Origin: Candidatus Hermodarchaeum yapensis
GTDB taxonomy: Archaea > Asgardarchaeota > Hermodarchaeia > Hermodarchaeales > Hermodarchaeaceae
NCBI GenBank assembly: GCA_016840405.1
Contig: JAEOSK010000001.1
Span: forward strand, 1-64,000
DNA length: 64,000 nucleotides
Reading direction: 5' to 3'
Below the pieces are notes generated by a model that saw only the letters and a program-made list of their open reading frames with translations, did no database searches and was not told the origin of the DNA. A program made the translations under genes and the position numbers. Every line of letters begins with the position of its first letter. The first letter of the stretch is position 1. Shown piece after piece: positions 29,239 through 31,074 of the stretch.

Positions 29239-29850
29239 ATGCCCAATCCAAAGAGGTCCATAATTGTCCCACTTGGACTTCTAATTAGTGTAGTACTAGC
29301 TGTTATTGTTTATTTTACTCAATGGCCAGTCCTCTACTCTCTAGTCTACAATACCTATGCTGGATTCACCAATCCTCTCCAATTGTATGAGCTAGCATGG
29401 ATTCTTGCTACCATCGATTATCTTCTCAACTTCTCAATCCTATACTCTCTGCTCCTGTGGGTTGGCATCACAATTCTTATCGCCCTTATCATTCGCAATT
29501 TAAATGCAACCCTGACTGTCCTCACAGTCGCTATGCTCCTTCTGGGCGGAACTTGGCTCTTATTTTCTATCAAGTATGCATTTGTCGCTGGCTTCTCCAT
29601 TTCCTTTCTCTTCACCTTCTTCTTCTGGCAAATAGTGATCCCACTAGCAATCATTCTGGGGCTTGCGACAATAGTTTCACTCCCCTTTTGGTTATTGCAA
29701 CGTCAACGACCAGCTGCTACTTCTGCTCCAACCACTTTTGACTTTGAGTGTACTCATTGTAATACGAAGTATCGCTCCAAACCCCTCATCTGCGTGCGTT
29801 GTGGTAAAGAAGGTTCAATCGAAGCAACAGCTTCTAATAATTCAGAATAG
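29239..29850 (+). CDS. Membrane protein with C-terminal zinc ribbon
   Basis: About 4 TM segments, then CTHC...CVRC. Confidence 0.78.
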   Translation: MPNPKRSIIVPLGLLISVVLAVIVYFTQWPVLYSLVYNTYAGFTNPLQLYELAWILATIDYLLNFSILYSLLLWVGITILIALIIRNLNATLTVLTVAMLLLGGTWLLFSIKYAFVAGFSISFLFTFFFWQIVIPLAIILGLATIVSLPFWLLQRQRPAATSAPTTFDFECTHCNTKYRSKPLICVRCGKEGSIEATASNNSE

Positions 29851-29910
29851 CGCAAAAATTATTTTGATATTCGCAATGAAATAATGAGGTTATTGAGGAA
29901 AACCTAGGGT

Positions 29911-29918
29911 TTTATATT
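29911..29918 (+). promoter_or_regulatory. TATA box for the candidate ncRNA
   Basis: TTTATATT centred about 27 nt upstream of 29941. Confidence 0.55.
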
Positions 29919-29940
29919 CATTACTGCTGATTATTTAAGA

Positions 29941-30092
29941 GCCGGTGTGGGGCAGCGGTACAATTTTGAAGAAACCAGATACCTCAAACTCCTCATAGGC
30001 AGAATCCTCCCAAGGAGGCCTCAGGCCCGAGTCGTCCTCGCCCTCCAAAACATCCCTCCTCCCTCGGCTGCCCTTCCGGCATCATTTTTTTT
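29941..30092 (+). ncRNA. Candidate structured small RNA of unknown family
   Basis: GC-rich island in an AT-rich gap; closing stem GCCGG/CCGGC plus GGGCAGC/GCTGCCC; nine CCTC motifs; T8 tract at 30085-30092. Confidence 0.6.
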
Positions 30093-30146
30093 AGAAATCT
30101 AAAAGATGAGAATTCAAGCAAGCCAGAAAATCTCGGAAATTAAAAT

Positions 30147-30995
30147 TTAGGCAGCAGCTGGCTCAGCTAAGATGTTGTTTGAAATTGCAAATTCTAAAAC
30201 TTCGACGATTGCATATTCTGGAAGACCCAGAAGGAAGGCGATCGTTTTCACGTCTCGTTTTCCATCAACGAGGAAAAGGACATCTCTTGCATAAGGACCA
30301 AATTTCTCGAAGAGTGTACCGCCCACAGGGGAACCCTTGTCTAAGGCTGCAAGGAGGGCGTCACCACCTTGCGGTACGAAAGTAAGATCTATTCGTCCTT
30401 CTGATGGTGTGGGTGGTGGGGGAGGTGGTTCAACGGCTTCGACGGGTGGTGGTTCTATTGGCGGTGGCATTGCTTCTTCAACAGGTGGGGCTTCTGTTGA
30501 TTCGGGGGGTGGGATTGGCTCTACCGATGGAGGAGGAGTTGGTGGTGGGCTTGTCTCAGGGGGTGTTTCAACTTCTGGTTCGGGCGGAGGGGGTGGAGGT
30601 GTCGGGGTTGGTGTAGGTGTTGGTGCGGGGGTTGGTGTAGGTTCAACAGGTTTTACTGGCATGGTCTTTAGTATGTTTAGATCAAGTTCGCGAAGTGCAA
30701 GCAGTGTTGCCTTGGTTTTGACGACAGCAATTCCGAGTGAAAGGTTGGGTGGAAATAACACGGCGAGTAGCCAATTCTCTGCAATTTTTGATATTACTAC
30801 TAGCCCGGCTTCTGTGTTAACTGTCAGCTGGCTAATCTGTCCTTTGTAAAGGCTTACTGTCTGTGTGACCATGACCTCGGTGTCCGGGTCAAGGGTGCTT
30901 TGATAGACTATGTTGTCGGGTGATATGATACAGAATGCTTTGACCATGCGGTCGAATCGAAGATTGTCAAGTGCTCGCTGGACGTCCTCAACCAT
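30147..30995 (-). CDS. Roadblock/profilin-like N-domain, Pro-rich linker, C-terminal winged helix
   Basis: VKAFCIISPD..NLSLGIA; ~85-aa P/T/E linker; VLFLVDGKRDVKTIA. Confidence 0.7.
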   Translation of the reverse strand: MVEDVQRALDNLRFDRMVKAFCIISPDNIVYQSTLDPDTEVMVTQTVSLYKGQISQLTVNTEAGLVVISKIAENWLLAVLFPPNLSLGIAVVKTKATLLALRELDLNILKTMPVKPVEPTPTPAPTPTPTPTPPPPPPEPEVETPPETSPPPTPPPSVEPIPPPESTEAPPVEEAMPPPIEPPPVEAVEPPPPPPTPSEGRIDLTFVPQGGDALLAALDKGSPVGGTLFEKFGPYARDVLFLVDGKRDVKTIAFLLGLPEYAIVEVLEFAISNNILAEPAAA

Positions 30996-31074
30996 GGCTA
31001 ATCCTGTGCCTCCGAATGCGCAATGTAGCTATACGGTATTTAGAGTTAGCGCTCTAAAATCTTTGCGCCCTTGC

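Follow-up and report, generated by a model that had tools for sequence, protein, structure and literature searches.

A small RNA gene of about 145 nt, read from the plus strand and so far uncatalogued, very probably lies between two convergent genes in the stretch of DNA analysed here (64,000 nucleotides, hereafter the window). Comparison of related genomes indicates that the class as a whole keeps the promoter together with the stem that closes the RNA, the CCUC motifs and the U-tail, in agreement with the preliminary description of the locus, which had claimed an unannotated small RNA gene. Within the RNA, a strand rich in CCUC and CCUCC resembles the core of the anti-Shine-Dalgarno tail of 16S rRNA, and we tentatively propose that the molecule acts in trans on ribosome-binding regions, a proposal that may plausibly hold and that we stop short of calling probable. 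Asgard archaea are the closest prokaryotic relatives of eukaryotes, and their regulatory RNAs are almost unstudied. A class-wide, single-copy small RNA with clear boundaries and a candidate working strand is a concrete object for tests, and for annotation purposes it adds a family that is absent from Rfam.

Boundaries, conservation and distribution of the gene

The promoter region of the gene is well conserved. A TATA box, TTTTATATT, occupies positions 29910 to 29918 of the plus strand (it contains TTTATATT at 29911-29918), and its centre lies about 26-27 nt before G29941, where we infer the 5' end of the transcript to be. Each of the 18 full-length relatives has a TATA-like element aligned with it, with an identity of 0.81. 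Six nucleotides before the TATA box, at 29893-29903 of the same strand, stands the motif TTGAGGAAAAC (family consensus TTG-M-G-R-AAAA-M), whose majority identity among 18 relatives is 0.85 as compared with 0.46 just upstream, and which is kept in both genera, the form of the second genus being TTGCGAAAAC. This motif may bind a factor, for instance as an operator, or may extend the BRE/promoter; no convincing regulon sharing the motif and the TATA arrangement was found elsewhere in the window's own genome (a 2.7-Mb assembly, 86% complete). The predicted transcription unit extends from 29941 to 30092 on the plus strand (about 145-150 nt), its 3' end falling within a T8 terminator tract (30085-30092), at which every relative carries a T-run of 4-9. 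Most of this unit (29941-30088) is recovered by the covariance model, with a score of 154 bits.

Conservation follows these boundaries closely. It amounts to 0.82-0.92 inside the element and to 0.42-0.46 directly outside the promoter and the terminator, the majority identity just past the T-run being 0.42. The core (29991-30046) reaches 0.89, and a variable linker (29971-29990, plus strand) shows an identity of 0.41 and varies in length by 1-14 nt among the relatives, the steps not being divisible by three. No open reading frame is conserved: the longest ones vary in strand, frame and length among the relatives, down to 12 codons. Bounded conservation, non-triplet indels and the lack of a conserved frame together argue for an independently transcribed non-coding RNA of the plus strand. 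We also considered an RNA of the minus strand, and rejected it because that side has neither promoter nor terminator and its apparent AUGAUG start is not conserved. The G+C content is 55-57% within the element as compared with 32-41% in the flanks; indeed, the GC-rich island, the TATA box some 27 nt upstream, the pairing of the ends and the T8 tract that had been reported from the letters alone are all present.

As sampled, the class comprises 19 genomes of uncultured organisms belonging to one order, one family and two genera, which were searched with BLAST and with a covariance model built from the family (R1). The covariance model found one copy per genome in 18 of the 19, the copy of the last one (G005) being cut by a contig end, and the window's own genome likewise has a single copy. 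Conservation in relatives had been named beforehand as an observation whose absence would refute the gene, and it came out in favour, class-wide. The surroundings are kept as well. At all complete loci the upstream neighbours encode a geranylgeranyl reductase, a weak DUF5518-like protein (below the Pfam cut-off) and a 203-aa membrane protein, and the convergent downstream neighbours are the gene of a Pro-rich protein of 282 aa that matches no Pfam family, then gltX. The 282-aa protein (gene 30147-30995) appears roadblock-like from its sequence. The minus-strand leader of this gene (30996-31040) is highly conserved in the first genus, and most copies hold an inverted repeat, GTACC...GGTAC, that would enclose the G-rich ribosome-binding region; this repeat may form a translational control hairpin.

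Outside the class, a covariance-model search of 132 other sampled Asgard genomes gave one weak candidate (in G115, see below) and nothing convincing otherwise. A search of genome and metagenome contigs with the pattern GGCAGAAT-N18-32-TCGTCCT yielded no relative among the 240 matches examined, the pattern being too loose and its matches due to chance; ATAGGCAGAATCC and TCGTCCTC together would make a tighter pattern for the family.

The comparison with known RNA families was negative throughout. Rfam 15 at gathering thresholds gave no match in the whole window, which is how the cmscan check suggested in the preliminary description turned out, and with E values up to 10 the region 29850-30150 gave three chance matches only (9.5-17 bits, for thresholds of 50-65). 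ARAGORN predicted no tRNA at the locus. The locus thus scores as no tRNA, 5S, SRP, RNase P or C/D RNA, in line with what had been noted from the letters, and as no H/ACA, Y or 6S RNA either. More specifically, a tRNA, a split tRNA or an intron was rejected because there is no ARAGORN match and, by inspection, no T-arm or BHB motif. A missing RNase P or SRP RNA was rejected because the canonical genes are located elsewhere in the genome (RNaseP_arch at C17:9705-10091, 166 bits; Archaea_SRP at C24:22360-22699, 121 bits). H/ACA, C/D and K-turn RNAs were rejected because inspection revealed no conserved ACA, C/D boxes or tandem G.A. Finally, a literature search did not bring up any RNA of this sort described from Asgard archaea.

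Clamp, hairpin and exposed pyrimidine tract

The fold predicted for the single sequence is not more stable than that of shuffled sequences (z = -1.55), and support for the structure therefore comes from comparison and not from energy. In the model-based alignment of 18 sequences, 91% of the cells are paired, as compared with 32-51% when the partners are slid by 1-3 columns. The two ends of the RNA form a clamp in two parts. Its 5' strands (29941-29956, plus strand; identity 0.82) consist of GCCGG at 29941-45 (P1), a 3-nt linker and G-GGGCAGC at 29949-56 (P2), and its 3' strands (30067-30080; identity 0.86) of GCUGCCC-U at 30067-74, a linker U and CCGGC at 30076-80. GCCGG pairs with CCGGC, and GGGCAGC (29950-56) pairs with GCTGCCC (30067-73); among the 18 sequences, 96.7% of the cells of P1 (5 bp) and 91% of those of P2 (8 bp) are paired. 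Changes on both sides are seen in four base pairs overall. In P2, the innermost, loop-facing pair is C-G in eight sequences and U-A in five, and a second double-sided change replaces G-C by A-U in one sequence. The closing stem that had been proposed is thus supported, with a covariation that is modest because the class is shallow, the four sequences of the second genus among the 18 being nearly identical; as a consequence, the support for structure rests mostly on conservation.

Inside the clamp, the hairpin SL-A (29998-30027, plus strand; GGC/GA/CCUCC-CAA-GGAGG/UC/GCC) locks one CCUCC against GGAGG, and 88.5% of its cells are paired. It takes the form CCUCU/AGAGG in G014, is register-shifted in the second genus (UCCCU-CCU-AGGGA) and is disrupted in G011. 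Next to it lies the near-invariant segment GAGUCGUCCUC (30029-30039, plus strand), in which UCGUCCU is identical in 18 of 18 sequences, while one-sided changes break the pairing of the CGAG/CUCG mini-hairpin in G001, G007, G009, G011 and G012. The conservation of UCGUCCU therefore serves something other than this stem. Of the mini-hairpins listed in the preliminary description, CCTCC-CAA-GGAGG is upheld by compensatory changes in relatives, and CGAG-TCGTC-CTCG, broken by the one-sided ones, is not supported. A search of all alignment columns against all others for further covarying helices brought up only an alternative pairing of the G-rich clamp strand with CU words. It can also be seen that the invariant GGCAG at 29998-30002 repeats part of the 5' strand of P2 (29951-29955), and that both copies can pair with CUGCC at 30068-30072; judging from these words, the RNA might switch between the closed fold and an alternative one.

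The most striking property of the RNA is its density of CCTC. The motif starts at 29982, 29991, 30006, 30019, 30036, 30042, 30055, 30058 and 30062, that is nine times in 84 nt, and we confirmed each of these positions, which had already been listed. Genome-wide, CCTC/GAGG occurs 3.5 times per kb per strand, so that about 0.3 would be expected per 84-90 nt, and the locus is the densest 90-nt CCTC window of the 2.7-Mb genome when both strands are counted. Such an excess, together with the rank of the locus, is more than chance. The runner-up 90-nt windows hold at most seven motifs, three of them having seven, and the seven that we inspected (all three with seven included) are long open frames with C-rich coding strands. 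The spacing of the motifs in the RNA is irregular (9, 15, 13, 17, 6, 13, 3 and 4 nt), and the relatives have 4-9 CCUC and 2-5 CCUCC each. As an aside on the genome itself, protein genes with C-rich coding strands and CCTC-dense frames are found at C30:65182-65425, C21:2451-2682, C76:74493-74568 and C3:84940-85012, and they reveal a strong strand-composition bias at the level of genes.

Five of the nine motifs belong to a pyrimidine tract, UCCUCGCCCUCC-AAAACA-UCCCUCCUCCCUC (30036-30065, plus strand), three of them overlapping at 30055-30065. The last four (30042-30065) have a predicted probability of being unpaired of 0.80-0.92 and are conserved in 12-16 of the 18 sequences, and the CCCUCCUCCCUC tract (30054-30066) has a majority identity of 0.92. 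Another single-stranded segment, AAUUUUGAA (29962-29970, plus strand; AAUUUUAAA in most relatives), is located directly 3' of the 5' strands of the clamp stem, and its majority identity of 0.91 stands between segments at 0.60 and 0.41. SmAPs bind U-rich RNA (PMC12817955), and the genome encodes three proteins with an LSM domain; SmAP genes lie at C25:25729-25920 and C76:48752-48946. The presence of AAUUUU(G/A)AA beside the clamp, together with these three genes, suggests a candidate SmAP/Lsm site, an A/U-rich word in an A+T-rich genome being weak evidence for it.

Proposed anti-Shine-Dalgarno pairing and the alternatives

We then considered what such an RNA might do. The explanation that we tentatively favour is that of a trans-acting regulatory RNA of the anti-Shine-Dalgarno type, possibly assisted by a SmAP. 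The scenario would be as follows. Transcription would start at about 29941 from an archaeal TATA promoter and would be stopped by the U-tract at 30085-30092. The G+C-rich clamp of the 5' and 3' ends, in its two parts (5 + 8 bp), would keep about 110 nt open; the internal hairpin would lock one CCUCC, and the 3' tract at 30036-30065, with its repeated CCUC/CCUCC, would stay single-stranded. This tract, as a copy of the core of the 16S anti-Shine-Dalgarno tail, would pair with purine-rich ribosome-binding regions of the GGAGG type in mRNAs and thereby alter their translation or stability. AAUUUU(G/A)AA beside the clamp may recruit a SmAP chaperone, as Hfq is recruited by bacterial sRNAs.

The genome has the sites that such pairing calls for. 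The 3' end of its 16S rRNA is GGAUCACCUCCU, which contains CCUCCU, and among the 5-mers between -18 and -4 of the first ATGs of long ORFs GGAGG shows the strongest enrichment (6.2-fold), in a group with AGGTG, GGTGA and GAGGT (5-6-fold). A Shine-Dalgarno-like word is present at about 20-35% of the starts; the preliminary description had remarked that many genes have GAGG or GGAGG upstream. As the genome uses GGAGG-type sites, anti-Shine-Dalgarno pairing is chemically possible. The CU tract lacks the UCACC part of the anti-Shine-Dalgarno sequence, and sites of the GGUGA type, which are equally common, would therefore not be covered. With RNAduplex, we measured the pairing of the 41-nt CU segment with 2629 start regions (-40 to +20) and with controls internal to genes. 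The mean duplex energy was -15.5 kcal/mol for start regions and -14.9 kcal/mol for controls, with near-identical percentiles, so that the genome as a whole gives no sign that start sites are preferred for pairing. According to these results, the idea of an anti-Shine-Dalgarno regulator, already raised in the preliminary description, is sound in its chemistry and has precedents, but gains no support from any enrichment of start-region pairing over controls.

Individual matches were inspected as well. The best start-region energies were -47 and -42.5 kcal/mol and the best control was -39.4 kcal/mol, with no clear outliers. The strongest match (-47 kcal/mol) concerns a 132-codon ORF that looks spurious. 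The best plausible one is the purine-rich leader of a gene for an EamA-type transporter (C5:1323-2228, minus strand), which is not a statistical outlier. A AAAGGGAGGAAG-like word in this leader is kept in most orthologues of the first genus, with no covariation, and any purine-rich leader scores well. The leader itself (C5:2229-2274, or L306:1030-1075, minus strand) reads AAAGGGAGGAAGGG...GGAGG..., and its core is conserved in most orthologues of the first genus. The convergent gene 30147-30995 was also tried as a target, since it ranks in the top 1.9% owing to GAGGACG in codons 3-5, and was rejected because relatives have GAGGAT or GAGGAA there, so that the match is not conserved.

An alternative, in our view rather unlikely, is that the clamp presents a multivalent pyrimidine strand to an RNA-binding protein, the RNA being a decoy or scaffold and possibly a mimic of the 16S tail. 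In CsrB, RsmY and CrcZ, many copies of a short motif in a small RNA titrate a binder, and the logic here would be that of CsrB/RsmY with another motif and another protein. Such a role agrees with the several copies of one short motif in an unstructured strand and with the lack of enrichment in start-region pairing. Moreover, long invariant segments outside CCUC (AUAGGCAGAAU, GAGUCGUCCUC and AAUUUU-R-AA) show identities of 0.89-0.92, as is usual where proteins make contact; AUAGGCAGAAU and GAGUCGUCCUC are conserved beyond the needs of a CCUCC seed, and protein or tertiary contacts therefore fit them at least as well. The likeness of AUCCCUCCU in the first genus to the 16S tail AUCACCUCCU extends past the core, but this similarity is not kept in the second genus, and the irregular spacing of the motifs also weighs against a decoy. 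A sponge of the CsrB/RsmY type proper was rejected. The motif is CCUC in an open strand, and neither GGA nor CA-rich; there are no regularly spaced hairpin loops, and CsrA (PF02599) was not found in the 86%-complete genome. As partner of the decoy, a small-subunit maturation or initiation factor that reads the CCUCC of the 16S tail, or a KH-type binder of C-rich RNA, could be envisaged. The adjacent genes say little on this point, since their order is the same throughout the class; the proteins that they encode, a membrane protein and the roadblock-like protein without Pfam match, have no RNA-binding domain.

We regard as quite improbable that the gene encodes a housekeeping RNP RNA, such as a guide, a processing cofactor or a Y-RNA-like agent of quality control, whose pyrimidine richness would be incidental. 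Its single, syntenic copy in every genome of the class would suit such a function, as would the terminal stem and U-tail, which resemble those of Y or vault-type RNAs, and the conserved upstream promoter element, which may mean a dedicated control. However, a housekeeping RNA would be expected to spread beyond one class, and the 132 other Asgard genomes gave one weak candidate; even the permissive Rfam search found no match, the RNase P and SRP RNAs are encoded elsewhere, and inspection revealed neither conserved C/D boxes or 3' ACA nor a K-turn or BHB. A Y RNA in particular was rejected, as the genome, 86% complete, yielded no TROVE/Ro60 gene and there is no match to the Rfam Y_RNA family. 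Finally, it is very improbable that the element is no independent RNA at all (but a cis element that the convergent genes share, such as a two-way terminator or a 3' UTR structure, the gene of a small protein, or noise due to base composition), since its position between convergent genes, the overlapping 51-codon GTG ORF (29947-30102, plus strand) and 42-codon TTG ORF (minus strand) and the non-significant fold of the single sequence are outweighed by a conserved TATA box of its own at the right distance in all relatives, by the variation of those overlapping ORFs in strand, frame and length, by an identity of 0.89-0.92 that ends at the T-run and, compared as DNA, is far above the value for the adjacent membrane protein gene, and by short T-runs that the minus strand has of its own ahead of the element.

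Known C-rich regulators and other clamp-closed RNAs

A trans-acting anti-Shine-Dalgarno RNA would have counterparts in other organisms. In RoxS/RsaE, C-rich regions pair with G-rich sites of the targets (PMC5419742). Like the RNA described here, RoxS/RsaE and IsrR come from stand-alone genes that are conserved across a lineage in one copy per genome, and hold several single-stranded C-rich motifs able to pair with G-rich sites of the Shine-Dalgarno type (PMC5419742; PMC9410917). The differences from RoxS/RsaE are nevertheless clear: there is no likeness in sequence or covariance model (Rfam), the promoter is archaeal and termination would occur at a U-tract, the motifs are mostly carried by one long clamped open strand and not by hairpin loops, and they read CCUC(C) instead of CCCC/UCCC. 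Closer in lineage, sRNA41 and sRNA154 of Methanosarcina mazei mask ribosome-binding sites; as far as that source describes them, they are archaeal intergenic sRNAs whose anti-RBS sequences are proposed to repress translation (PMC5867862). They belong to a different phylum and show no evident homology, their targets are experimentally supported (PMC5867862), and the copy number of the motif is far higher in the RNA described here. We therefore consider the latter as a new family within a known kind. What had been announced as a new sRNA class is new as a family, and the use of C-rich motifs to pair with ribosome-binding sites has precedents in RoxS/RsaE (PMC5419742) and in sRNA41/sRNA154 (PMC5867862). 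If the RNA acts on Shine-Dalgarno sites, the principle of C-rich seeds, which methanogens and Gram-positive bacteria use, would reach Asgard archaea as well; if it mimics the 16S tail, it would represent a new kind of translational control.

A similar design recurs in the same genomes. A second family of putative CU-loop sRNAs has one to four matches in each of the 19 class genomes, and in the window's own genome these are located at C41:35092-35206 (plus strand; L307:193-307), C21:22068-22158 (minus strand; L308) and C41:7074-7159. Its members share with our RNA a TATA box of their own, a closing stem and an invariant C/U-rich loop with CCCUC and CCUCCAA. They differ from it in that no likeness can be aligned beyond the pyrimidine words, in their length of about 115 nt and in their one to four paralogous matches. 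In the other Asgard lineage mentioned above (G115), two sRNA candidates stand in tandem on the minus strand of contig C47 (L047:1501-1615 and L047:1270-1408), both of which have a TATA-like box and are closed by a long stem around a CU-rich interior that contains CCUCC words. With R1, the first of them reaches 20.9 bits; in common with the family it has the GCYGG...CCGGC clamp ends, UCGUC and CCUCCAAAC. It is devoid of SL-A and of the synteny, and it has no detectable relatives, BLAST of its own order being negative. On this basis it is possibly a distant relative, as a candidate that is not proven. A wider model including it (R2) gave only matches with E = 0.8-4 and without gene anatomy, which were rejected, as were two hits in G031 (L048) that lie in a duplicated stretch, have no promoter or terminator anatomy and are read as coding repeats.

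The recurrence of a clamp and a CU strand in the second family and in G115 argues that it is the pyrimidine strand that does the work. One could go further and imagine a whole layer of clamp-closed CU-loop RNAs in Hermodarchaeia and perhaps in other Asgards, with at least four genes in the window's own genome, all exposing copies of the 16S anti-Shine-Dalgarno tail and engaged in global competition with ribosomes for mRNAs led by Shine-Dalgarno sites or in mimicry of the 16S tail; we consider this a long shot. If true, these RNAs, perhaps carried on SmAP rings, would compete with ribosomes or titrate a small-subunit maturation or initiation factor, and in both cases translation would be controlled by a ribosome mimicry that is not known to have been described in archaea.

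A last observation concerns the 16S rRNA itself. In its 3' region (minus strand of C71, some 630-700 nt from the end of the contig), the loop region of helix 45 contains about 30 inserted nucleotides, between GGGGAA and CCUGCGG and just before the GGAUCACCUCCU tail; this insertion may be a small intron or else the enlargement of a hairpin that normally does not vary.
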